Below, piece after piece: positions 3,869-35,127 of a stretch of 64,000 bases of DNA; the stretch's first letter is position 1, and each line of letters starts with the position of its first letter. The notes beneath the pieces are model-generated. The model saw only the letters and a program-made list of their open reading frames with translations, made no database searches and was not told the DNA's origin. The DNA is taken from positions 15,048-79,047 of the forward strand of contig MFUZ01000003.1 in assembly GCA_001785865.1 (NCBI GenBank). The letters run 5' to 3'. Made by a program: the position numbers and the translations under genes. Origin of the DNA: Candidatus Nomurabacteria bacterium RIFCSPLOWO2_01_FULL_41_18. GTDB taxonomy: Bacteria; Patescibacteriota; Minisyncoccia; Phycocordibacterales; UBA9973.

Positions 3869-4570
3869 ATGGCAAAAAAGGGCAAACTCATAGTAATAGA
3901 CGGTACGGATAGTAGTGGAAAGGCGACTCAAACGGAACTTTTAATTAAACATTTAAGAAAAGATGGGCGCAAAGTGAAAATTGTTGATTTTCCAGATTAT
4001 TATTCAAATTTCTTCGGTAAATTTATCGGGCACTGTCTTTCGGAGCAATATTACAATTTCGTGAAAGTGCATCCAAAGATCGCTTCAGTGCTTTACGCTG
4101 CGGACCGCTTTGAATCAAGAGATAAAATTAAAAAATGGATTGCCGAGGGTAATATAGTCATTGCAAACAGGTATGCTAGTGCGAACCAAATCCATCAAGG
4201 CGGAAAAATTGCCAATACAAAAAAAAGAGAAAGTTTCTTGAAATGGCTGGCAGAGATGGAATACGAAGTTTTCAAAATTCCAAAGCCAGATGCTATATTT
4301 TATTTGAGCGTGCCTATTCCTGTTGTTTTGAAATTAATTCGCCAAAGAGATCAGGAGAAAAAAAATAAAAACAGAAGATATCTTGGTAAGAAGAAAGATG
4401 TTCATGAGAAAGATGTAAATTTTTTGATAAATTCTCGCAAAACTGCCCTTTGGCTCGCAAAAACTCAAAAGGGATGGGTAAAAATTGAATGTGTAAAAGG
4501 TGGAGTACTAGATACTCGTGAAAATATACATAAAGAAATTTATGCGAAAATTAAAAAAGTTTTAAAATAA
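3869..4570 (+). CDS. tmk: thymidylate kinase
   Basis: P-loop IVIDGTDSSGKAT, and a DRF/ANRY-like LID region. Internal ATG at 3869. Confidence 0.8.
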   Translation: MAKKGKLIVIDGTDSSGKATQTELLIKHLRKDGRKVKIVDFPDYYSNFFGKFIGHCLSEQYYNFVKVHPKIASVLYAADRFESRDKIKKWIAEGNIVIANRYASANQIHQGGKIANTKKRESFLKWLAEMEYEVFKIPKPDAIFYLSVPIPVVLKLIRQRDQEKKNKNRRYLGKKKDVHEKDVNFLINSRKTALWLAKTQKGWVKIECVKGGVLDTRENIHKEIYAKIKKVLK

Positions 4571-7880: not shown

Positions 7881-8060
7881 ATGCAAGAAGAAACAAAACA
7901 AAAGTTCGGAGAACATTATATTTGCCTTGGGGGCTGTAGGGGAGTTTCCAAAGTTCCCGGTGCCTGCAATTCGCCTAGTTGCGTAAATCACAATCACAAA
8001 CTCGTGAAGTGCAATTGTACAGATGGTTTGCATAACAATTTTGAACTCTTATTACAATAA
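7881..8060 (+). CDS. possible leaderless Cys-rich micro-protein (59 aa)
   Basis: Below the 60-aa track cutoff. The ATG at 7881 lies 7 nt after an extended -10 (TGGTATAAT, 7866-7874). 8 Cys and 4 His (CLGGCRGVSKVPGACNSPSCVNHNHKLVKCNC). Its stop sits inside palindrome copy A. Confidence 0.25.
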   Translation: MQEETKQKFGEHYICLGGCRGVSKVPGACNSPSCVNHNHKLVKCNCTDGLHNNFELLLQ

Positions 8061-8090
8061 GTACGTAATGTATTACATAATACATTGTTT
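8054..8090. repeat. Palindromic repeat copy A (ACAATAAGTACGTAATGTATTAC-ATAATACATTG)
   Basis: Shares AATAAGTACGTAATGTATTAC with copies at 9714 and 11871. Imperfect inverted symmetry; lies just upstream of the helicase gene. Confidence 0.65.
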
Positions 8091-8119
8091 TTGCAAATAC
8101 GTAGTACAATGCTTGAGCC

Positions 8120-9718
8120 ATGACTCAAGATCAAGCATTGAATATTTTAAAAACTGGTGCTAATGTTTTTCTCACTGGCGAGCCGGGAGCTGGTAAGACG
8201 CACACAATAAATAATTTTGTGAATTATTTGCGTGCTTGTGATGTTGAGCCGGCTATTACAGCTTCTACGGGCATCGCGGCGACGCATATCGGTGGGATGA
8301 CCATTCATTCTTGGAGTGGTATAGGCATCAAAACAAAACTAGATAAATATGATTTGGACAAAATTGCTAGCAGTGAATATGTTGTGAGGCGTGTTAATCG
8401 CACGAGGGTTTTGATTATAGATGAGGTTTCAATGTTGTCGGAGAATATGCTCAACATGATGGATGCTGTTTGTAGAGAAATAAAACAAAATAGCCAGCCG
8501 TTTGGTGGGATACAGATTATTTTGGTTGGTGATTTTTTTCAGTTGCCGCCAATTGTGAAAAAGGACTTTATAGACGAAAAACAGAATTTGCTTATTAAAA
8601 ATATTGTGAAAAATAACAGTTTTGCATATGAATCAGGCGCATGGGAACGTGCACGACTAATTGTTTGTTATCTTTCTGAACAACATCGCCAAGATGATGC
8701 TGATTTTCTGTCTGTACTGGGAGGAATACGAGCCAATAATTTTTCGCAATCACACAGGAATCACATAAATACTAGAAAAATTAATTTAGATAGTCAGCCT
8801 GCGAATATTACAAAACTTTTCTCACACAATGTGGATGTGGACAAAGTAAACAATACTGAACTTGTAAAATTAGACGCAGAAGTAAAATCATTTAAAATGT
8901 CTGGAAGTGGAAATGATAAAATAGTTGAAACGCTCAAGAAAGGATGTTTGTCACCAGAGAATTTAGAACTCAAAATAGGTGCTGTGGTGATGTGTACCAA
9001 AAATAATCCAAAAGAAAGATTTGTGAATGGCACTCTTGGTAAGGTGACGGGCTACGAAGAATTTAGTGGAAACCCGATTATTAAAACCAAGAATGGACGG
9101 AATATTGTTGTTGCGCCTATGGATTGGACAGTGGAAGAGAACGGTAAAATTCGCGCGCAAATAACTCAAGTTCCGCTTCGATTGGCTTGGGCTATCACAG
9201 TGCACAAGAGCCAGGGGATGAGTATGGATGCGGCGGTGATGGATCTCTCGCAAGTGTTTGAATTTGGGCAGGGGTATGTGGCACTTTCCCGAGTGCGCAG
9301 ACTCTCTGGACTTTATTTGCTTGGCATAAATGAGCATGCGCTCAAAGTGCATCCAGAAATTTTGAAAAAAGATATTGATTTTAAAAACAAGTCGCAAGAA
9401 GCTGTGCAAGTTTTCGGTAAAATTCTGGAAAATGATTTAAAAAAGATGCATGATGATTTCGTGGTGGCTTGCGGAGGGAAGGTGGGGAATTTATCCACCC
9501 CGACGCAAGCGTCACCCCTCAAGAGGGGAATTAAAAATGGATTTGCTGAAATCAGAGAGAAACATCCGAACGCATACAGGCCATGGAACAAAGAACAAGA
9601 CGAAGAACTTAGCAAATTATTTATTTCCGGTTTTAAAATACCAGACCTAATGAAAAAATTTGGCAGAAAAAGGGGAGGGATTTCTGCAAGACTTGAAAAG
9701 CTTGGGTTGGTGAAATAA
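8120..9718 (+). CDS. PIF1/RecD-family 5'-3' DNA helicase (AAA_30 + C-terminal helicase domains) with an extra ~90-aa C-terminal tail
   Basis: Walker A (LTGEPGAGKTHT), Walker B (LIIDEVSML), QLPPI, and a C-terminal ITVHKSQGMSMD with GQGYVALSRVR — the PIF1 signature arrangement. Tail: PWNKEQDEELSKLF...GGISARLEKLG. Confidence 0.8.
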   Translation: MTQDQALNILKTGANVFLTGEPGAGKTHTINNFVNYLRACDVEPAITASTGIAATHIGGMTIHSWSGIGIKTKLDKYDLDKIASSEYVVRRVNRTRVLIIDEVSMLSENMLNMMDAVCREIKQNSQPFGGIQIILVGDFFQLPPIVKKDFIDEKQNLLIKNIVKNNSFAYESGAWERARLIVCYLSEQHRQDDADFLSVLGGIRANNFSQSHRNHINTRKINLDSQPANITKLFSHNVDVDKVNNTELVKLDAEVKSFKMSGSGNDKIVETLKKGCLSPENLELKIGAVVMCTKNNPKERFVNGTLGKVTGYEEFSGNPIIKTKNGRNIVVAPMDWTVEENGKIRAQITQVPLRLAWAITVHKSQGMSMDAAVMDLSQVFEFGQGYVALSRVRRLSGLYLLGINEHALKVHPEILKKDIDFKNKSQEAVQVFGKILENDLKKMHDDFVVACGGKVGNLSTPTQASPLKRGIKNGFAEIREKHPNAYRPWNKEQDEELSKLFISGFKIPDLMKKFGRKRGGISARLEKLGLVK

Positions 9719-9756
9719 GTGCGTAATGTATTATGTAATATATTACGTAACTTTAG
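9714..9756. repeat. Palindromic repeat copy B (AATAAGTGCGTAATGTATTATGTAATATATTACGTAAC)
   Basis: A degenerate version of copy C with 3 transitions. Starts at the helicase stop codon. Confidence 0.65.
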
Positions 9757-11870: not shown

Positions 11871-11911
11871 TACAATAAGTACGTAATGTATTACGTAATA
11901 CATTACGTAAC
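11871..11911. repeat. Palindromic repeat copy C; contains a perfect 30-bp palindrome TACGTAATGTATTACGTAATACATTACGTA (11880-11909)
   Basis: Exact reverse-complement symmetry checked base by base. 5' flank ACAATAAGT and 3' flank ACGTAAC are shared with copies A and B. Confidence 0.75.
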
Positions 11912-11914
11912 TAA

Positions 11915-16924: not shown

Positions 16925-17446
16925 GTGGACAACAAATTTATCTACGTAAATGATAAATATCAGATCGATGCTCTAAATAAAGATTGGATTGGTTTACCAG
17001 TTTTTTTTGAAAATTTACCTGAAGAAATAAAAATAAAAGGAGATACTTTCTATTTTCCAACTCCATTTCATATTAGTCTTGTATATATCGGGAAAATAAT
17101 TGAAAAATACAATATTTCAATCCCAGATTTCAGAGACAAAATCATAGATGATTTTTCTAATTTTACGAAAACTGATAATATTGAAGTTATTAAATATAAT
17201 AATAAATATAAACTTGTTTCTAGAGATGGCATAAATAAAACTATTGTAGTAATGTGTGAAGTTTCAAACTTGAACAATTTTTTTGATTTTATAAATAAAA
17301 AATATGAGCTAAATATAAAATACCCAGCTACTCATGTTACTCTCTATAACACATCAAAGGGTAAATCTGGTATTTGGCTAATGGACGAAGATGATATTAA
17401 AAACATTACTGTAACTATACCAAATCCGATAGGTCGCCCTCTGTAA
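16925..17446 (+). CDS. 2H phosphoesterase superfamily protein (LigT/ThpR-like 2',3'-cyclic or 2'-5' phosphodiesterase)
   Basis: Two H-x-[ST]-x motifs (FHISLVY, THVTLYN) about 89 residues apart in a 173-aa protein — the defining 2H architecture. Confidence 0.55.
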   Translation: MDNKFIYVNDKYQIDALNKDWIGLPVFFENLPEEIKIKGDTFYFPTPFHISLVYIGKIIEKYNISIPDFRDKIIDDFSNFTKTDNIEVIKYNNKYKLVSRDGINKTIVVMCEVSNLNNFFDFINKKYELNIKYPATHVTLYNTSKGKSGIWLMDEDDIKNITVTIPNPIGRPL

Positions 17447-17480
17447 TTTTAATATGCTAAATACTTAGTAACATAATAGA

Positions 17481-17491
17481 TACGGCCGTTG
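17481..17491. repeat. ACGGCCGT-core palindrome upstream of the PaaX-like gene
   Basis: TACGGCCGTTG. Related to the perfect 18-bp palindrome TAGCAACGGCCGTTGCTA at 18095-18112, just downstream of the same gene. Confidence 0.5.
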
Positions 17492-17512
17492 TCAATATGC
17501 TATCATATCTTT

Positions 17513-18073
17513 ATGAAAATAATTGATAAAGAATCTAATTCGGGAAAGATAATCCGTGCCTTGGGTATGGGAATAGGAGTGACAGTAGCTTTATCAAATA
17601 AAAGAACAAGTTATAAAGTCACTAAATTATTGATTAAAGAAATTTTTGGCTTAAACAGAAAACCTGCAAATATGGCTGGTTATTTTTCAAAACTTAGGAG
17701 ACAAAAATTGATAGAGATTAAAAAATCTGGTAAATATCATAAAATTTTTCTTACAGAAAATGGTAGGGAAATATTTTTACGATTTAACTATGACGAATTA
17801 AAAATAAAAAATCCCAAAATTTGGGATAGAAATTTTAGAGTGATTGTTTTTGATATTCCAGAAACTAAGAGGGTAGCCAGAGATTCCTTAAGAGAAAAGA
17901 TGAAGGAACTAGGGTTTGTTAAATTTAACGACAGTGTATGGGTTTATCCGTATCCGTGCCAGAAAGAGATTGATTTTATTGCTAATTATTGGGAAATAGG
18001 TAGGTATGTCCATTTTATTTTGGCTCGGGATATCACCAATCGAGATTTATTAGAAAAAGCCTTTAGTTTGTAA
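17513..18073 (+). CDS. PaaX-like regulator domain protein (Cas2-like ferredoxin fold segment)
   Basis: WDRNFRVIVFDIPETKRVARDSLREKMKELGFVKFNDSVWVYP matches the PaaX middle domain (WDGKWLLLL...LIWQGFG...). The track start at 17489 is a TTG inside the palindrome; the ATG at 17513 is used. No CRISPR array nearby. Confidence 0.45.
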   Translation: MKIIDKESNSGKIIRALGMGIGVTVALSNKRTSYKVTKLLIKEIFGLNRKPANMAGYFSKLRRQKLIEIKKSGKYHKIFLTENGREIFLRFNYDELKIKNPKIWDRNFRVIVFDIPETKRVARDSLREKMKELGFVKFNDSVWVYPYPCQKEIDFIANYWEIGRYVHFILARDITNRDLLEKAFSL

Positions 18074-18807: not shown

Positions 18808-19389
18808 ATGCATCACATTTATCATACAGAGGGGATAATATTGAGCAGTAAGAATTTTGGAGAAGCGGGGAAACACTTTTCTATTTTCACTCGTGATTTG
18901 GGGATGATAACAGCGACGGCGCAAGGAGTTCGAAAGATTTCTTCAAAACTTCGCTTTGTGTTGCAGGATTTTGCATATATAAAAATTGATTTGGTGCAAG
19001 GTAAAAATATTTTTAGAGTAACGACCGCATCGAAAACGAACCAGCTGGAGCAGTTGATTAAAAATAGAGAGACTTTTGCGGTTTTTGCCAATATTTCTCG
19101 CTTATTAAAGCGGTTACTTGCTGGCGTTGAACCCAACGAAGCATTATTTTCGGATTTGATTGGTGGTTTGTTTATTTTAGAAAAAACAGAAAAAAGGGAA
19201 GATTTAAGAAATATAGAAATAGTTATTGTTTTAAGGATTCTGAATAATCTGGGGTATATAGGTGAAAATGAAATATTAGAAAATCTCACCAAATCTCCAT
19301 TTGAAGAAGATTTAATATTCAAAGTTTCAGAATCAAGAATCCACGTATTAAATCAAATAAATAAAGCTCTTAAAGAGACACATCTATAG
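18808..19389 (+). CDS. recO: DNA repair protein RecO
   Basis: N-terminal OB-fold signature (TEGIILSSKNFGEAGKHFSIFTRDLGMITATAQGVRKISSKLR) matches RecO. Start is immediately after the MBL gene stop. Confidence 0.6.
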   Translation: MHHIYHTEGIILSSKNFGEAGKHFSIFTRDLGMITATAQGVRKISSKLRFVLQDFAYIKIDLVQGKNIFRVTTASKTNQLEQLIKNRETFAVFANISRLLKRLLAGVEPNEALFSDLIGGLFILEKTEKREDLRNIEIVIVLRILNNLGYIGENEILENLTKSPFEEDLIFKVSESRIHVLNQINKALKETHL

Positions 19390-19408
19390 ACTATGGTATA
19401 ATCTTAGA

Positions 19409-21358
19409 ATGCCTCAAAATGATAGGGATAAGTTAAATAGAATAGAAGAGTTAAAAAGCAAGCTTTTCAGCAAAAGCTATCAGACAAAAATAGAACACAA
19501 GGATCGTTTTACTCATTTCGAGAAAAAAGACGTGCCAGATGCCTGGGGGAAAAGCCCAAAATTCGACCTTGCGCCATCATATTCAAGCGAAAAATTTTTT
19601 ATGAAAACCTCGGTTTTCAAAAATTTCTTCATATTTTCTTTAGTTTTTTTTGCTTTGACCCTTCTATACGCTTCTTATGTCTTTTTCGGTGGTAGCAATA
19701 CTGTTTCCAATGACAATATCGATATTTCCATAGTCGGCAACAATTTCACGGCCGGAGGAGAAGAATTGTCACTGGTCGTCGGAATCACGAACAAAAACAG
19801 TTCTGCACTCGACTTGGTGGACCTGGTCGTAGAGTATCCGAAGAGCTCTCGTCTAGGTAGTACTGCGCCGCCCTCTGGGACAGAGAGATTTCGAGAATCC
19901 CTGGGCACAATTCCCGCCGGAGTGGTGCGCAATGAAAATATAAAACTTATTCTTTTTGGAGAACAGGGCACAGAGCGGCAGATAAAAATTTCCTTGGAAT
20001 ATCGGGTAGAAGGATCAAACGCCATTTTCGTAAAAGAGAAATTCTACGAGGTGACCATTAGCTCTACACCGCTCAATATCTTAGTCGATGCGCCTAAAGT
20101 GATAAGTCCGAACCAGGATATTACTCTCAATATAAAAACAACACTGAACGCTACCAACCCAGCATCCAAAATACTTCTGAAGATCGATTATCCTCTCGGA
20201 TTCCAATTTAAGTCATCCGTTCCGGTTCCGTCCCTTGGAAACAATATCTGGAATTTGGGGGACCTAGCTCCTGGCGCTGAGCGCAATGTCGTGGTCACTG
20301 GTCAGATGATTGATGTGTTTGATGGAGAAGAGAAAATATTTCATATCTCAAGCGGATCCCAGTCGGGAGGAGACAAGTCTCTTATCGATGTCGTCTTCAA
20401 TTCTCTAGCTTACTCGGTCGGTATCCAAAAGCCTTTCATCGAAGCGAAGCTGTATGTAAATGGCGTATATCAGAGGGAGTACGCTACTACTGCAAAGAAT
20501 CCGGTCCGAGGCGAAATAAAATGGACCAACAATTTAGATACGAAAGTAAATGACCTAGAGATTCGAGCTAAGATTTCCGGGAATTCATTCGATCGGGAGA
20601 CCATAGATAGCGACCAAGGGTTTTATGATTCGGCGATCGATACCATAATCTGGGACAAGAATTCTGAAAGTGAACTTTCCGAAGTGAATCCTGGAGATTC
20701 GGGTTCAGTGAACTTTTCCGTCTCTCCGCGTTTGCTGTTTTCAGCTACTGGCGGGATAATTTCCGATCCGTCGATTAATATCAATATTTCTATTTCTGGA
20801 AAGCAGATGACTACCGGCTATACCACTGTCGATCTAAACAATTCCGATTCCTCGGTCATTAGGATCATTTCGGACGTGGGATTCGCGACCAAAGCGCTCT
20901 ACTATTCGGGTATTTTTACAAATACCGGTCCGGTGCCTCCCCAAGTCGGAAAAGAAACCACTTATACTGTAGTGTGGTCCTTATCCAATACTTCAAACAG
21001 TATTTCGAAAGGCATTGTCCGTTCATCGTTGCCATCCTGGATGAAGTTTACCAACAAGATCTCGCCGGAAAGTGAAGATGTGACTTACAATCCTTCAACT
21101 CGGGAAATCGTCTGGAATATCGGCAGGATTCCGCGAGGCACAGGTATCGCCACCGTCGACAAAAGCGTTTCTTTTCAGGTAGCATTTACCCCATCCCTGT
21201 CTCAGGTTCGCACAACGCCGGTTATCGTCAACGAAGCTGTTTTGACGGGTCATGATGATTTTGCTAATGTGGATGTGCGGGTAAGTAAGTCGTCAATCCG
21301 AACACAGCTCGAGAATGACCCTTCTTTCCCTCCGGGTGGGGGCACAGTAGTGGAATAA
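19409..21358 (+). CDS. hypothetical membrane-anchored extracellular protein (649 aa)
   Basis: Short cytoplasmic N-terminus, one TM helix (FFIFSLVFFALTLLYASYVFF), then a large Ser/Thr/Asn-rich beta-type ectodomain. No family recognised. Confidence 0.5.
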   Translation: MPQNDRDKLNRIEELKSKLFSKSYQTKIEHKDRFTHFEKKDVPDAWGKSPKFDLAPSYSSEKFFMKTSVFKNFFIFSLVFFALTLLYASYVFFGGSNTVSNDNIDISIVGNNFTAGGEELSLVVGITNKNSSALDLVDLVVEYPKSSRLGSTAPPSGTERFRESLGTIPAGVVRNENIKLILFGEQGTERQIKISLEYRVEGSNAIFVKEKFYEVTISSTPLNILVDAPKVISPNQDITLNIKTTLNATNPASKILLKIDYPLGFQFKSSVPVPSLGNNIWNLGDLAPGAERNVVVTGQMIDVFDGEEKIFHISSGSQSGGDKSLIDVVFNSLAYSVGIQKPFIEAKLYVNGVYQREYATTAKNPVRGEIKWTNNLDTKVNDLEIRAKISGNSFDRETIDSDQGFYDSAIDTIIWDKNSESELSEVNPGDSGSVNFSVSPRLLFSATGGIISDPSININISISGKQMTTGYTTVDLNNSDSSVIRIISDVGFATKALYYSGIFTNTGPVPPQVGKETTYTVVWSLSNTSNSISKGIVRSSLPSWMKFTNKISPESEDVTYNPSTREIVWNIGRIPRGTGIATVDKSVSFQVAFTPSLSQVRTTPVIVNEAVLTGHDDFANVDVRVSKSSIRTQLENDPSFPPGGGTVVE

Positions 21359-21394: not shown

Positions 21395-22609
21395 ATGAAA
21401 AAAGAAAGTAAGGAAAACGACTTGATGGAAAAGATAGTCTCGCTCGCTAAAAGGCGTGGGTTTGTTTTTCAGGGCTCGGAGATATATGGGGGATTGGCGG
21501 GGACTTACGACTGGGGGCATTTTGGTGTTGCTTTAAAAAATAATATTAAGCAGAATTGGTGGAAAAAATTTGTTGATTCTCGCCGAGACATGTATGGCAT
21601 AGATGCGGCGATATTGATGCGTCAAGAAGTTTGGCAAGCGACAGGCCACGTGGCAAATTTCGCAGACCCTCTTGATGGTAAACAATTTAATACAATGCTC
21701 AAGACTCAAGTCGGTGCAGGGGAGGAGGCTACGGTTTCCTATCTGCGACCAGAAACAGCACAGGGTATGTTTGTAAATTTTAAAAATACAGTAGATGCAT
21801 TTCACCCAAAACTGCCTTTCGGTATGGCTCAGATCGGTAAAGCTTTCAGAAACGAAATTGCCCCTCGGGATTTCTTGTTTCGACAGCGCGAATTTGAGCA
21901 AATGGAAATAGAATATTTTATTCGTTCAGTTGATTGGGAAAAATATTTTGAATATTGGAGAAGTGAGATGTTAGACTGGATGCAAGAACTAGGCCTTGAT
22001 ATGGGTCGTGTGCATGAGCTGGAAGTTTTAGATGCTGACAGAGCGCATTACTCTAAAAGAACAATTGATTTTGAGTTTGATTTTCCTTTCGGAAGAAAAG
22101 AACTTTTTGGCTTGGCATATCGTACTGATTTTGATTTGAAAACTCATAAATTGGAATATGTAGATGAAGAAAATTCAGAAAAAATTGTTCCACATGTAAT
22201 CGAACCATCAATGGGAGTCGATAGGGCAGTATTGTCTCTCCTTATCTCTACATATACGGAAGACGAAAAGGATGGGGAGGTGCGTTCATACTTGAAATTT
22301 AAGCCCAATATTGCTCCAGTCATTTGCGCTGTTTCGCCTTTGCTTAAGAATAAACCAGAGCTTGTAGAATACGCTAATGCAAAAGTCTATGCTCCACTCA
22401 AAGAAGAATTCGGCAGGGTGGCATGGGACGACAACGGCAATATCGGCAAACGTTATCGCCGTCAAGACGAAATCGGCACACCTTTTTGCATTGTTGTTGA
22501 TTTTGATACTTTGACAGATGATTCTGTGACTGTGCGAGACAGAGATACAGGCGAACAGGAAAGAATAAAAGTAGAAGATTTAAAAAAATATATAAAGGGG
22601 AAGATTTAG
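21395..22609 (+). CDS. glyQS: glycine--tRNA ligase (alpha2 GlyQS type)
   Basis: YGGLAGTYDWGHFGVALKNNIKQNWW (motif 1 region), class II motifs and a C-terminal anticodon-binding domain. Confidence 0.8.
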   Translation: MKKESKENDLMEKIVSLAKRRGFVFQGSEIYGGLAGTYDWGHFGVALKNNIKQNWWKKFVDSRRDMYGIDAAILMRQEVWQATGHVANFADPLDGKQFNTMLKTQVGAGEEATVSYLRPETAQGMFVNFKNTVDAFHPKLPFGMAQIGKAFRNEIAPRDFLFRQREFEQMEIEYFIRSVDWEKYFEYWRSEMLDWMQELGLDMGRVHELEVLDADRAHYSKRTIDFEFDFPFGRKELFGLAYRTDFDLKTHKLEYVDEENSEKIVPHVIEPSMGVDRAVLSLLISTYTEDEKDGEVRSYLKFKPNIAPVICAVSPLLKNKPELVEYANAKVYAPLKEEFGRVAWDDNGNIGKRYRRQDEIGTPFCIVVDFDTLTDDSVTVRDRDTGEQERIKVEDLKKYIKGKI

Positions 22610-22622
22610 CACCCCCTCCCAG

Positions 22623-22720
22623 CCTCCCCCTTGGCGAAGAGGGAGGGGAAGATAAATTAATCACCACCCCTGACCCCTCCTCCACAAGGTGGGGTGCCTT
22701 TAGGAGGGGTGGTGATTTTT
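22623..22720 (+). terminator. GC-rich compound hairpins plus T-tract after glyQS
   Basis: CCTCCCCC..GGGAGGGG, and ATCACCACCCCT...AGGGGTGGTGAT (12-bp arms) followed by TTTTT. Confidence 0.65.
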
Positions 22721-22734
22721 ATATAAAAAAAGTT

Positions 22735-22769
22735 CAGCCACGACCCCCGGTTTCCCAGAGACGTGGCTG
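22735..22769 (-). terminator. hairpin CAGCCACG..CGTGGCTG with a T-run on the minus strand; terminator for the small minus-strand gene
   Basis: 8-bp stem. The minus-strand reading has AACTTTTTTTA immediately 3'. Confidence 0.5.
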
Positions 22770-22777
22770 TGATTGTT

Positions 22778-23023
22778 TCATTGCTCGGTTCTTTGTTTCG
22801 GGAGGGGGCGCCCAAGAACATAACCCGTGACGAGTCCGGAAATCCACAGGAGTGTAATTCCCAGAATCAGGTAGTGAACTTGGATGTTGTCATCTTTTTG
22901 TACGCTTGCTATAAGCGTCATACCAAGAGCCAGGGGAATAAAAATCCCCAATGCCCATCTTGTTCGGTAGTCCATTTTAGTGAAGTGTGCAAATTGAGGT
23001 ATCCATCCTCGTTCAGGTCGCAC
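22778..23023 (-). CDS. small two-TM membrane protein (81 aa), hypothetical
   Basis: Two hydrophobic helices (ALGIFIPLALGMTLIASV; LILGITLLWISGLVTGYVL), followed by a terminator. Preferred over the overlapping plus-strand ORF 22763-23053. Confidence 0.4.
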   Translation of the reverse strand: MRPERGWIPQFAHFTKMDYRTRWALGIFIPLALGMTLIASVQKDDNIQVHYLILGITLLWISGLVTGYVLGRPLPKQRTEQ

Positions 23024-23129
23024 GCCTGTTTTGTTGTTGAAAGGACGAAATAGTTACATAAAAGTTGTACAATATTTTATGCACAATTGCAAGCGTTTTT
23101 AAAATTACTATAATGCTATACTTTTTTGT

Positions 23130-29071: not shown

Positions 29072-29082
29072 AAACTTACCCA

Positions 29083-29160
29083 ACCTCACCTCAATCCTCT
29101 CCTGAAAGGAGAGGAGAAATTCAGCCCCTTCCCCTTTCAGGGGAAGGCGGGGGATGAGGT
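29083..29160. terminator. GC-rich nested hairpins between the convergent rpsR and efp genes (bidirectional terminator)
   Basis: CCTCTCC-TGAAA-GGAGAGG and CCTTCCCC-TTTCA-GGGGAAGG, nested inside CCTCACCTCAATCC..GGATGAGGT. Confidence 0.55.
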
Positions 29161-29741
29161 TAAACCCTCTCCACATATTCTCCAGTTTCTGTATTGATGC
29201 TCACTGTGTCACCTTCGGCGATAAACATCGGAGCGTTAAGAGTGGCTCCATTTTCAAGCGTGATGATCTTGTTGCCTCCTTTGGAGGTGTCTCCGCGCAC
29301 AGCCGGGGGGGCCTCTTTTACTTTGAAATTCATTTTGATAGGTAGGGTGACTTTTATTATTTGTTCAACTTCATCTTCATTTTCCCAAATCACAGCTTCA
29401 GCATTACTGTTTTGTTTCAAAAATTTTTCGGCATTGCCTATCAGCGCTGCGTCCAGTTTAAATCTTTTACTTTTATCTGTCGGGTCGCAGAACCAATACT
29501 CGTTCCGATTGTGGTAAAGGAAGGTGATAAGTTTTTTTTGGATGTCGGCTTCATCAGCTGATTCGGAAACGTGAAAAGTGGCATTGATGGTCTTACCGGA
29601 TATCAATGTCTTCAATTTTACCTGGTTTTGAGGCTTTCTCTGTTGAGTTCGGGCCACATGGGACTCGATGACTTCGCAAGGTTCACCATCGTAAATGATT
29701 ATCTTTTTCTCGCGAATTTCGTTATATTCAAGTTTTGACAT
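29160..29741 (-). CDS. efp: elongation factor P
   Basis: 193 aa; KPGKG-type loop region (RTQQRKPQNQVKLK...) and three OB/KOW-like domains. Confidence 0.85.
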   Translation of the reverse strand: MSKLEYNEIREKKIIIYDGEPCEVIESHVARTQQRKPQNQVKLKTLISGKTINATFHVSESADEADIQKKLITFLYHNRNEYWFCDPTDKSKRFKLDAALIGNAEKFLKQNSNAEAVIWENEDEVEQIIKVTLPIKMNFKVKEAPPAVRGDTSKGGNKIITLENGATLNAPMFIAEGDTVSINTETGEYVERV

Positions 29742-33732: not shown

Positions 33733-34620
33733 ATGAATAAAAACATAAAAGACACTCAATCGTCCATATCCACCCAGTCTTCTAATTTTGGAGAACAGGG
33801 AGCTCTCGTGTCCTTTAGCAAGACCTACCAGCCTGCTATTGTAAATAAGGCCGGCAAGCTGATCACAGCATTGTACATGGTAACGGACGTAATGGACAAA
33901 GAAGAACCGATAAAAAATAAGTTAAGGACATTGGGTACAGAAATCATATCAGACATGCATTCAGTGCCATCGGATATAGATAGTAAAATTACGGAAATCA
34001 TGTCCTTTTTGAATATAGCTACAGCCATGAGCTTTATTTCAGAAATGAATTGCTCTATTCTCAAAAAAGAATTTTCAGTCTTACAACAATCCATAAAAGA
34101 ATCAGCTCAAATGAAGCCTGCCTGGCTCGAGGATTTTTTGGAAGAAGAATTTCCTCCCCTTCTTGATAAGGAGGGGAATGAGGGGAGGTTTCTGGAGAAT
34201 TCACCTCACCCCAACCCTCTCCTTATTAAGCCTGCCCGCCTGGAGCGTTCGGGCGGGGAGAGGGGGAGTCCAATTTCTAAAGGACATGTTAGAATTGGTG
34301 TCCAAAAGAGAGACGCCTTTTTAAAAATTATAAAGGACATGTCCGATAGAAGTATAGTTTCACAAGGTGTTCACACAGGATCTGATTTTGGTGTATTAAA
34401 GAAACAAAGACGCAACGACATCATCAATATGGTGAAGGTTGTTGGCGGGAGTGCTACTATAACGGACATCAGGGACCAAGTTCAGATGGCTCCAGCCCAG
34501 GCCGGCCTGCTCGTTTCTTGCAGTGAAAAAACGTTGCAAAGAGAGTTGATGTCCATGACGAAGGACGGTCTATTGAAGAAGACAGGGGAAAAAAGGTGGA
34601 GCCGGTATTTCATCAAATAA
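33733..34620 (+). CDS. hypothetical protein with a C-terminal winged-helix domain; a GC-rich hairpin repeat is embedded in frame
   Basis: C-terminus ATITDIRDQV...SEKTLQRELMSMTKDGLLKKTGEKRWSRYFIK resembles Fic/RecG-type wHTH tails. Nucleotides 34141-34290 (EEFPPLLDKEGNEGRFLENSPHPNPLLIKPARLERSGGERGSP) are made of CCCCTT..AAGGGG-type hairpins. Confidence 0.45.
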   Translation: MNKNIKDTQSSISTQSSNFGEQGALVSFSKTYQPAIVNKAGKLITALYMVTDVMDKEEPIKNKLRTLGTEIISDMHSVPSDIDSKITEIMSFLNIATAMSFISEMNCSILKKEFSVLQQSIKESAQMKPAWLEDFLEEEFPPLLDKEGNEGRFLENSPHPNPLLIKPARLERSGGERGSPISKGHVRIGVQKRDAFLKIIKDMSDRSIVSQGVHTGSDFGVLKKQRRNDIINMVKVVGGSATITDIRDQVQMAPAQAGLLVSCSEKTLQRELMSMTKDGLLKKTGEKRWSRYFIK

Positions 34621-35127
34621 CCTCTTAAATTCAACCCTCCCATCCTCCCCTTATCAGGGGAGATAGAATGTCGAATCCCCTTAATAAGGGGATTTAGGGG
34701 GTTGTATCTTTTACATTTGCATTTTGCTCAAATTGTGATAATATAGCTTTGTGGGTTTTATTCGCTTAAAAGGCGAGTTATCCACATAATATCTTGCTCT
34801 ATCTTGGAGCTATGTATTATAATAATATTGTGTTTATGTGGCGCGCATTTTATGCGTATCATGTATTCACAAATTATATTTGTTTTCACTTTGATTTTTG
34901 TTTGAGATTTCGTCGAAAAGATTTCAAGCAATGCGGAGAGAAAATAAATGCCCATTGAAAACCGAATAGCTATGTTTTTAATGGTTTAGTTTACATCTGT
35001 TCGTTATTTTAAATCCGTTGCATTATAAATTATTAATAGTTATTAACGGATGAGGAATAATGATAGAAAAAATTGCGCTTTTAGTTTTGTCGAAACTTAT
35101 TAATAGCGTAAAAATTAGAAAAATTAT

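Follow-up and report, generated by a model that had tools for sequence, protein, structure and literature searches.

Palindromic repeats resembling REPINs and RPEs in Nomurabacteria, with one copy tolerated in frame within a protein linker

REP sequences and REPINs are short imperfect palindromes with a one-sided unpaired tag, usually arranged as inverted doublets that form a larger hairpin; they are mostly extragenic and lie 3' of genes, and intragenic copies are occasional (PMC3733652, PMC3337134). The RPEs of Rickettsia, which end in CGTC (PMC3733652), are found as numerous in-frame insertions in protein genes unrelated to one another, where the encoded peptide is compatible with the fold (PMC10969869). 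Bacterial MITEs (Correia, ERIC, BOX, RUP) and the terminator-like SPRITE of pneumococci are small non-autonomous elements with inverted ends, for which transcript hairpins, in-frame fusions or a likeness to terminators have been described (PMC10969869).

Here we examine a family of hairpins in a 64-kb stretch of Nomurabacteria DNA (henceforth the window; all features given below are on the plus strand). Genomes of CPR bacteria (Patescibacteria) are small and thought to be streamlined. Our main reading, to which we give a probability of about 0.8, is that the hairpins are short non-autonomous palindromic repeats, similar to REP/REPINs and RPEs, that populate the genomes of Nomurabacteria and Paceibacteria. 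In the full-text literature on palindromic repeats in Patescibacteria, Parcubacteria and the candidate phyla radiation we found no such elements described, and the family is apparently a REPIN/RPE-like one undescribed in CPR bacteria.

The original prediction, made from the window alone, had pointed to GC-rich hairpins at four sites, and all the sequences quoted for them are present there. A covariance model (R1), built from 30 intergenic metagenome copies only and run with filters off, matched positions 34144-34275, 22598-22727, 29083-29165 and 34631-34712, and its best match was the copy inside a gene. No other site in the window scored below E 0.02, and the sole match at 0.02 (29127-29147) falls inside 29083-29165. 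The window contains 7 perfect hairpins of 6 bp or more whose 5' arm is all pyrimidine and whose 3' arm is all purine (Y/R arms), compared with a mean of 0.36 and a maximum of 2 in 200 dinucleotide shuffles, and the fold z-scores of the four sites range from -3.2 to -4.7. On the sequence evidence, the four sites are a single repeat family. No sequence of the window reached the gathering score of an Rfam 15 family, and E-value scans returned chance-level miRNA-like matches only. The proposed signature of the family, CCCCTT..AAGGGG, had to be abandoned: the literal motif occurs once, and the common trait is the polarity of the arms together with a C-rich flank. The genome had also been called AT-rich, which is right to a moderate degree only, as its GC content is about 39%.

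The repeat unit is a stem-loop of 7-11 bp whose 5' arm is C-rich and consists of pyrimidines only and whose 3' arm consists of purines only; it carries a C-rich flank on one side only, for instance AATTCACCTCACCCCAA. When 51 copies were inspected, the flank was 5' only in 21, 3' only in 20 and on both sides in 6. Composites of about 80-125 nt consist of two inverted units and can adopt either three hairpins or a single long one; composites of type I and type II are conserved. Their ends, AATTCCTCCCCTCCTT and AAGGGGAGGGGGAA(TT), are inverted repeats by virtue of the palindromy of the whole element. Three 106-nt copies in the related locus L077 show 87-93% mutual identity. Elements nest within one another, as hairpins inside hairpins. 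The 5'-pyrimidine/3'-purine polarity, which in a palindrome does not depend on the strand, is pronounced: in 1.35 Mb, perfect Y/R-arm hairpins outnumber those of opposite polarity by 162 to 2 if the stem is at least 7 bp, and by 286 to 31 if it is at least 6 bp.

Because each of the three stop codons contains T plus a purine, Y/R arms are free of stops in all six frames; therefore, a copy that lies in frame and has a length divisible by three survives where the protein tolerates a flexible insert. Translation of the arms yields Pro/Leu/Ser followed by Gly/Glu/Lys/Arg, and the same arm is used by different proteins in three reading frames. Judged from such comparisons of sequence, the constraint acts on nucleotides and not on the peptide. 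An example of an element-coded peptide is FLENSPHPNPLLIK.

The copy within a gene is an in-frame type I composite of three hairpins at 34150..34268, which R1 matches over its full length (70.3 bits, E 1.6e-20). It is made of unit 1 (34150-34189, a hairpin with the 3' flank GAGGGGAGGT), a central loop (34190-34201) and unit 2 (34202-34268, the 5' flank CACCTCACCCCAA with the hairpin CCCTCTCCTT..GGAGAGGG). The host ORF, 33733..34620, reads through 34141-34290 unbroken, as had been proposed, and the segment encodes EFPPLLDKEGNEGRFLENSPHPNPLLIKPARLERSGGERGS. The composite has a minimum free energy of -69.1 kcal/mol (z -4.7 against shuffles) and can fold as a single long hairpin; relative to 1000 synonymous recodings its z-score is -8.1, a fold far beyond what the peptide calls for. 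Compared with the element of locus L032, its nucleotide identity is 0.90, against 0.59 for the remainder of the gene; at third codon positions the figures are 0.81 and 0.42, the synonymous sites of the element being far more conserved than those of the surrounding domains. A 22-mer from this copy, AAGGAGGGGAATGAGGGGAGGT, recurs exactly in 63 metagenome stretches.

A nested hairpin insertion of 27 nt or 9 codons (CCTGCCCGCCTGGAGCGTTCGGGCGGG, 34231..34257) separates AAG from GAG in the 3' arm of unit 2. Codon alignments with L032 and two other loci show a clean 9-codon gap exactly there, and in the R1 alignment the loop of hairpin 3 is enlarged by an insertion of 28 nt. A related hairpin family, CCTGCCCGCC..GGCGGG, was seen in four loci. 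The databases hold no close relative of the window genome, and the history of the in-gene copy is therefore not datable.

The host gene encodes a 295-aa conserved Paceibacteria/Nomurabacteria protein (1127 homologues; top non-self match 55% identical), in which a variable linker joins a helical N-domain to a C-terminal winged-helix-like domain. It is a DNA-binding protein; a Pfam scan gave nothing over the cut-offs. In an AlphaFold2 model, helices occupy residues 34-137 and 193-277, residues 148-191 have a pLDDT below 50, and the element-coded residues are predicted to be disordered. Alignment of orthologues shows two conserved domains and a hypervariable linker that ranges from 39 to 76 aa. 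A linker hairpin of this type is found in only 19 of 77 orthologues and the segment is otherwise absent or replaced, contrary to what ancestral coding sequence would show; linkers with a hairpin are longer than those without (66 versus 57 aa, p = 5e-4). The copy at 34150-34268 is a tolerated in-frame insert in a disordered linker between two domains.

The remaining copies in the window are intergenic. A type II composite just 3' of the stop codon of the host gene, at 34632..34704 (fold -36 kcal/mol, z -3.2; R1 19.0 bits, E 3.6e-4), has an outer stem AACCC / GGGTT around the hairpins CTCCCCTtatcAGGGGAG and ATCCCCTTaataAAGGGGAT, and equivalent composites lie directly 3' of the orthologue in four related loci. 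Another type II composite (29082..29161; fold -44.2 kcal/mol, z -4.4; R1 21.1 bits, E 7.8e-5) lies between the S18 and EF-P genes, which are convergent, and has an outer stem AACCTCA / TGAGGTT around CCTCTCCT and CCTTCCCCT; it matches the flank and arm of the in-gene copy at 19 of 22 bases, with 0 such matches expected by chance, and three loci have this same composite in other genomic contexts. Two hairpins at 22613..22716 (22613-22648 and 22660-22716; fold -55.5 kcal/mol, z -3.9; R1 28.7 bits, E 2.9e-7) lie 3' of the glycyl-tRNA synthetase gene, whose product has class II aaRS and HGTP anticodon-binding domains. The second of them, which ends at 22716, has a long stem, CACCACCCCT..AGGGGTGGTG, and is the only hairpin at these sites in the window to be followed by a T-run.

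The proposal that the hairpins double as terminators was not supported. They resemble Rho-independent terminators in being GC-rich stem-loops 3' of genes in a lower-GC genome; however, TTTT is found within 12 nt of the hairpin in only 14 of 192 copies (7%), the other 93% having no U-tract, copies are limited to about 7% of intergenic regions, and sister genomes have none. A terminator consensus scan called none of the three intergenic sites of the window. Copies are also present in divergent, promoter-side spacers, with a density of 0.30 per kb compared with 0.64 in tandem and 0.50 in convergent spacers.

As many as 90 of the 162 perfect hairpins of the related loci lie within ORFs, an upper bound given that the longest-ORF map is crude and stop-free arms inflate spurious ORFs. 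In metagenomes, matches to the 22-mer were intergenic in 44 cases and inside ORFs of 292-773 aa in 10, in both orientations; several contigs carry 2-3 copies each, and none of the ORFs that span the 22-mer has the conserved motifs of the host gene. In-frame copies occur in the gene of the window and, among related loci, in FtsK, TatD, a gene of about 357 aa and another of about 495 aa, and copies inside genes are placed between domains.

The family is patchy: 32 of 81 sequences are devoid of any copy, and L024 has 14 copies while its 79%-identical relative L049 has none. The loci L024 and L048, 83% identical, hold different elements at the same three hot spots. At an N-terminal hot spot, L097 has a 126-nt nested composite where L098-100, 98.9% identical, have a 60-nt cassette; the difference has sharp borders and no SNPs nearby, and is a replacement, not a simple insertion. 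Hot spots are always filled by some hairpin cassette, such as the 'PERKPSASYGAG' module or the 'PAPYEAxGFRSG' module, both of which occur at two positions. No pair of empty and filled sites with a simple precise insertion of a Y/R-arm element was found, and the three L077 copies showed no target-site duplication. A different, 74-nt element with a 9-bp duplication was observed in L097. Element density does not correlate with GC content (rho 0.14, p 0.21). A 30-nt length difference in FtsK between the P0071 strain variants was considered as a possible element and ruled out, as it stems from a stop-codon SNP. A phage vector was considered as well; with 0 and 8 exact matches to viral contigs, out of 2.9 million contigs, there is no sign of one. 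The turnover between close relatives and the difference between 98.9%-identical strains fit a moving element. The idea of a small hairpin element, duplicative or mobile, that a gene tolerates in frame is supported: neither of the two observations that the original prediction had named as refuting it was made, as the segment is missing or replaced in most orthologues and the intergenic copies are homologous to the in-gene copy.

Genes resembling Y1_Tnp or REP-associated transposases (RAYT-like) are present in 21 related loci. They are flanked by other hairpins, with mixed stems of 11-12 bp and CAG/CTG or CCA/TGG loops, and their presence in a locus does not track element density: four loci, L049 among them, have the gene and no elements. 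The window gave no tblastn match to a RAYT-like gene and lacks the syntenic block in which relatives carry one; a Pfam scan of about 20 of the 57 window ORFs revealed no transposase. That the flank might be half of a RAYT-cognate hairpin was rejected: CCCCTACCC is common to both in one locus, and three others showed no co-variation. Neither a GTAG nor a CGTC tag is present in the window flanks CACCTCACCCCAA, AACCTCACCTCAAT and AACCCTCCCATC or their complements; in other genomes, GTAG is confined to the CCTCCCCC subfamily, where the complement of the flank reads CTGGGTAGGGGT.

If the in-gene copy were an ancestral Pro/Gly/Glu linker inherited vertically, and the intergenic hairpins unrelated terminators of like composition, the occurrence of SPHPNPLLxKERG at the same linker position in many orthologues would be accounted for, as it could mimic vertical inheritance. 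The variable length of the linker and the lack of the module in most orthologues speak against such a history, and so do the conservation of synonymous sites, a codon choice that maximises folding, recognition of the in-gene copy by a model trained on intergenic copies, and the recurrence of the 22-mer in dozens of unrelated contexts that are not fragments of the host gene. We consider this explanation very improbable. Alternatively, each hairpin might be a structure that selection maintains in place for a function in RNA or DNA (a terminator, an mRNA stabiliser, a protein-binding site or an inter-domain translational pause), the likeness among copies resulting from convergent or purifying selection and not from mobility. 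Composites directly after the orthologue stop codon in several genomes, the lower density in divergent spacers, the placement of in-gene copies between domains, and paired C/T with G/A changes in hairpin 3 (copies with CCCTCCCC..GGGGAGGG versus copies with CCCTCTCC..GGAGAGGG) are compatible with this. Nevertheless, a needed function would not be dispensable in sister lineages, and loci without a copy include close relatives of rich genomes; the same site is occupied by different subfamilies in 83%-identical genomes, and U-tracts and filled spacers are both rare. Selection in place is thus distinctly unlikely.

A further explanation concerns how copies arise. Cassettes might be made or exchanged without a transposase, through template switching at palindromes during replication or through short-patch recombination or gene conversion between copies or strains. 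Since the strain difference is a replacement, recombination could also yield it, and the permanent occupancy of hot spots, the nesting of hairpins, the lack of target-site duplications in the L077 copies and a local duplication in the linker of L032 (KNSPHPNS-KNSPHPNPLL) point in the same direction. Such a route leaves near-identical 100-nt composites at unrelated loci and contigs unexplained unless a dispersal step is added, and a sharp-bordered swap without flanking SNPs is not what a diverged donor would be expected to leave. We regard it as unlikely. Under our preferred reading of mobile, non-autonomous repeats, new copies would probably arise by a single-stranded-DNA hairpin pathway. A candidate enzyme would be an HUH/Y1 (RAYT-like) transposase such as many related genomes encode, and hairpin-templated replication or recombination might be an alternative source of copies. 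Selection would then retain only those in permissive spacers and linkers, and any effects on transcription or mRNA stability would be secondary.

The repeats described here share with REP/REPINs a short palindrome in many copies, a one-sided flank, inverted pairing, a location for the most part outside and 3' of genes with some intragenic copies, and the presence of RAYT-like genes in the clade. They differ in that window units have neither tag, the RAYT-like genes of the clade are flanked by other hairpins, and the in-ORF share is much larger. With RPEs they have in common palindromic repeats of about 100-150 bp, in-frame location in unrelated genes and a reduced genome, a likeness at the level of description. 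To our knowledge, no transposase has been assigned to RPEs, which is a further point in common. Unlike RPEs, the present elements belong to an unrelated phylum, do not end in CGTC, have strict pyrimidine/purine arms, are composites of two inverted hairpin-plus-flank units, and show nesting and turnover in the occupancy of fixed hot spots. The terminal inverted repeats of the composites recall MITEs; however, no target-site duplication (in the three L077 copies) and no parent IS with matching ends were identified, and the U-tract of SPRITE is missing.

If none has been described before, this would be the second independent case, after the RPEs of Rickettsia, of palindromic DNA living in genes, and the Y/R arms provide a clear sequence rule that explains coding tolerance. 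Annotation is affected, as the repeat occupies both spacers and coding linkers and its stop-free arms produce spurious or fused ORFs, such as the GATase-TatD fusion in L077. Recurrent peptides like NSPHPNPLLxKERG are DNA repeats and not protein motifs, which matters for homology searches, and hot-spot differences are natural markers for strain tracking in groundwater metagenomes. A bolder proposal, which we hold to be rather unlikely, is that CPR/Nomurabacteria possess a lineage-specific 'translation-proof' REPIN-like system, in which Y/R arms are tolerated in any coding frame and which would be driven by HUH (RAYT-like) transposases carrying an in-frame copy of their own cognate hairpin, and would continuously remodel housekeeping proteins (FtsK, TatD, DNA-binding proteins) in their disordered linkers and at their N-termini. 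If true, such a system would give extremely reduced genomes an inherent source of variation in protein length.

The window has a GC content of about 39%, and the names attached to homologues of the protein encoded at 33733..34620 place its source genome among Patescibacteria of the Nomurabacteria/Paceibacteria type. The related set comprised 80 orthologous loci (identified by L numbers) from species-representative genomes, all of them MAGs of the same type. Gene order (S6, SSB, S18 / EF-P, RecA, FtsK / host gene / PG_binding_1 protein) agrees with that of the relatives. Every hairpin sequence quoted in the original prediction was found in the window, and the open reading frame 33733..34620 does continue unbroken across the GC-rich segment, as had been claimed. 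In an AlphaFold2 model of the host protein, the residues encoded by the element fall in a stretch that has pLDDT <50, lacks secondary structure and separates a helical N-domain from a winged-helix-like C-domain. Linker length ranges from 39 to 76 aa across 77 orthologues; in the 19 whose linker includes such a hairpin, it is longer and richer in GC. Sites in FtsK that are filled in many relatives are vacant in the FtsK of the window.

The window contains seven perfect hairpins (stem ≥6 bp) in which the 5′ arm is all pyrimidine and the 3′ arm all purine; 200 dinucleotide shuffles gave a mean of 0.36 and a maximum of 2. When the window and the 80 related loci (1.35 Mb) were considered together, this polarity outnumbered the opposite one by 162 to 2 when the stem was 7 bp or longer, and by 286 to 31 when it was 6 bp or longer. 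Such polarity is identical when the palindrome is read from either strand. An asymmetry of this kind would not be expected if GC-rich stems were simply favoured. Fold z-scores of the four sites in the window range from -3.2 to -4.7.

Flanked listings of all copies define the unit as an inner hairpin with a C-rich flank on a single side, as in AATTCACCTCACCCCAA-CCCTCTCCTT-nnn-AAGGAGAGGG. The flank in 51 copies of this subfamily is 5′ only in 21, 3′ only (that is, the unit in inverted orientation) in 20, and on both sides in 6. Two units inverted relative to each other form a composite. Type I composites have the order hairpin, purine flank, AT-rich loop, pyrimidine flank, hairpin, with three hairpins in a total of about 100 nt; type II composites have the order pyrimidine flank, hairpin, spacer, hairpin, purine flank, with two hairpins inside an outer stem. 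The in-gene composite (34150-34268) is of type I, and those at 29082-29161 and 34632-34704 are of type II. Locus L077 holds three type I copies of 106 nt with pairwise identities of 87-93%, and the resemblance ends abruptly at their borders. Alignment of 30 intergenic metagenome copies gave the consensus TTCCTCCCCTCCTTACCAAGGAGGGGAATGAGGGGAGGTTCTTAATTAATTAGGAACCCCTCCCCAGCCCTCCCCTTAGTAAGGGGAGGGGGAA; the element matches no RNA family described in Rfam.

The copy within the gene is the same element as the intergenic ones. Its flank and arm agree with the copy in the S18/EF-P spacer at 19 of 22 bases (0 expected by chance), and exact matches to its 22-mer AAGGAGGGGAATGAGGGGAGGT occur in 63 metagenome stretches. 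Of these matches, 44 fall between genes and 10 within ORFs (292-773 aa; both orientations). Two to three well-separated copies are present on several contigs. A covariance model built only from the 30 intergenic metagenome copies, run with filters off, detected the in-gene copy at 34144-34275 (70.3 bits, E 1.6e-20) as well as 22598-22727 (28.7 bits, E 2.9e-7), 29083-29165 (21.1 bits, E 7.8e-5) and 34631-34712 (19.0 bits, E 3.6e-4). These are precisely the four sites originally proposed; no further site in the window fell below E 0.02, and the lone match at 0.02 (29127-29147) lies within the 29083-29165 site.

Within genes, constraint acts on nucleotides and not on the peptide. The arm CCTCCCCCTT is read as LPL, SPL or PPP depending on the frame, in different proteins. 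One thousand recodings of the window peptide, drawn from the window's own codon usage, had a mean MFE of -29.8 ± 4.8 kcal/mol; that of the real in-gene sequence is -69.1 (z -8.1). In comparison with the L032 orthologue, the element retains a nucleotide identity of 0.90 (0.81 at third codon positions), versus 0.59 (0.42) for the gene outside it. The window copy also bears a clean 9-codon insertion (34231-34257) within the 3′ arm of unit 2, and this insertion is a hairpin from a different family.

How coding sequence accommodates such a repeat can be read from its arms. Each of TAA, TAG and TGA contains T and a purine; hence, a stop codon is impossible in arms made of pyrimidines only or purines only, in all six frames. 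The arms encode Pro/Leu/Ser, then Gly/Glu/Lys/Arg. The centre of intergenic composites, TTAATTAATTAG (metagenome loci L103-L165, alignment A6), has stops in all three frames of both strands, and an intact element with this centre would be a six-frame translational stop wherever inserted. Inside genes, copies either differ at the centre (the window copy has TCTGGAGAATT) or are read in the sole open frame.

A separate case was seen in L077 (1956-3419), where a 106-nt composite connects a glutamine-amidotransferase-like gene to a TatD gene, so that both read as one ORF of 487 aa; therefore, the repeat can fuse adjacent genes or mislead gene callers. Further hairpin-coded peptide modules recur in orthologue proteins (alignments A1, A4 and A5): 'PE(R/G)KxSASYGAG', 'MPAPYEAxGFRSGS', 'ITTSPFGHSSSIRRRE' and 'PPPPKGYSSRGEL'. 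The first two are each found at two positions of one protein family, differing by genome, so several hairpin families behave alike.

Copies are unevenly distributed: 32 of 81 sequences lack any, and L024 has 14 and L048 has 8, but L049 (79% identical to L024) has none. GC content does not account for this distribution. L024 and L048 are 83% identical overall, with near-identical conserved domains, and three shared positions (N-terminal variable site, linker and downstream spacer) are occupied by differing element subfamilies in the two. In one 90% protein cluster, members that are identical across about 250 residues differ only at the N-terminal site. At strain level, L097 and L098-100 share 98.9% DNA identity across 4.6 kb, and a 126-nt nested composite in the former occupies the place of a 60-nt hairpin cassette in the latter, with no SNPs near the borders. 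These signs of mobility and turnover fit the proposal that the hairpin is a small element, mobile or duplicative, which a gene can tolerate in its coding sequence, and that proposal is supported.

The accompanying proposal that the hairpins serve as terminators is not supported. TTTT lies within 12 nt of only 14 of 192 copies, about 7% of spacers contain a copy, divergent spacers included, and a consensus scan picked none of the three intergenic sites. On these grounds, canonical terminator identity was rejected.

As to machinery, tblastn with E. coli RayT retrieved ORFs of about 220-250 aa matching the Y1_Tnp and 'REP-associated tyrosine transposase' profiles in 21 related loci, frequently at a syntenic position; the clade thus does possess HUH enzymes of the type acting on hairpins in single-stranded DNA. 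Their flanking hairpins are genome-specific, 11-12 bp long, with CAG/CTG or CCA/TGG loops, and do not belong to the pyrimidine/purine family. RAYT-like gene presence does not track with element density, and tblastn found none in the window. For these three reasons, a link between RAYT-like enzymes and mobilisation of the element is a tentative and rather doubtful hypothesis, and our confidence in any specific mobilisation mechanism is low.

Several RAYT-like genes hold an in-frame internal copy of their own flanking hairpin (L023 19008-19703; L026 16305-17018; L046 19203-19904; L070 15784-16536; L004 18031-18771; L017 16136-16792; L065 17078-17773; L048 17693-18355). Internal and flanking hairpins co-vary across genomes, and in L023 the internal copy directly follows the HUH motif and encodes 'ITSPKSDLGE'. 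None of the papers examined was found to describe a transposase gene that harbours its own repeat. RAYTs are normally single-copy; L050 is thus unusual in having two 100% identical RAYT-like genes (16928-17608 and 19190-19870) 2.3 kb apart.

Other repeats and hairpins were also detected. Downstream of the host gene, before the PG_binding_1 gene, is a conserved hairpin (34750-34814) with GAGTTATCCACATAAT...CTTGCTCTATCTTGGAGCTATG after it, seen likewise in L001 (~4388), L026 (~10933) and L097-L100; it gave no match in Rfam and may represent a leader or small RNA. The conserved GAGTTATCCACATAAT motif, at 34775-34790 in the window, is also the target downstream of the gene in L097 of a 74-nt MITE-like insertion (4074-4147) that is not in L098-L100; its inverted ends are about 19 bp (CCACACCTTCTTTGAAGA) and it is bordered by a 9-bp duplication, GAGTTATCC. 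The same insertion is apparently present in L006 near 10973. An AT-rich palindrome of a separate family (AATAAGTACGTAATGTATTACGTAATACATTACGTAACT; 8056-8094, 9714-9752 and 11874-11912) brackets a PIF1-like helicase gene and a HATPase_c_3 gene, and its three copies are perhaps operators or terminators of an inserted gene pair. The GlyRS and peptidase M16 genes are separated by about 400 nt (22717-23129) containing a strong mixed-sequence hairpin (22729-22776, -26 kcal/mol); it has no match in Rfam and so may be an undescribed small RNA.

The nearest analogues of the element are Rickettsia palindromic elements, which insert in frame into many unrelated genes (PMC10969869), and REP/REPIN sequences, which have one-sided tags, form inverted doublets and lie chiefly downstream of genes, at times within them (PMC3733652, PMC3337134, PMC5581495). 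The element departs from the REP/RAYT class in two defining features, as the window units carry neither a GTAG nor a CGTC tag and flank no cognate RAYT; it differs from a classic MITE in showing no target-site duplication at the three L077 copies. Full-text searches on palindromic repeats in Patescibacteria, Parcubacteria and the candidate phyla radiation turned up no account of such elements. Altogether, we consider it probable (around 80%) that the element is a REPIN/RPE-like palindromic repeat of CPR bacteria with an arm design that coding sequence can accommodate.
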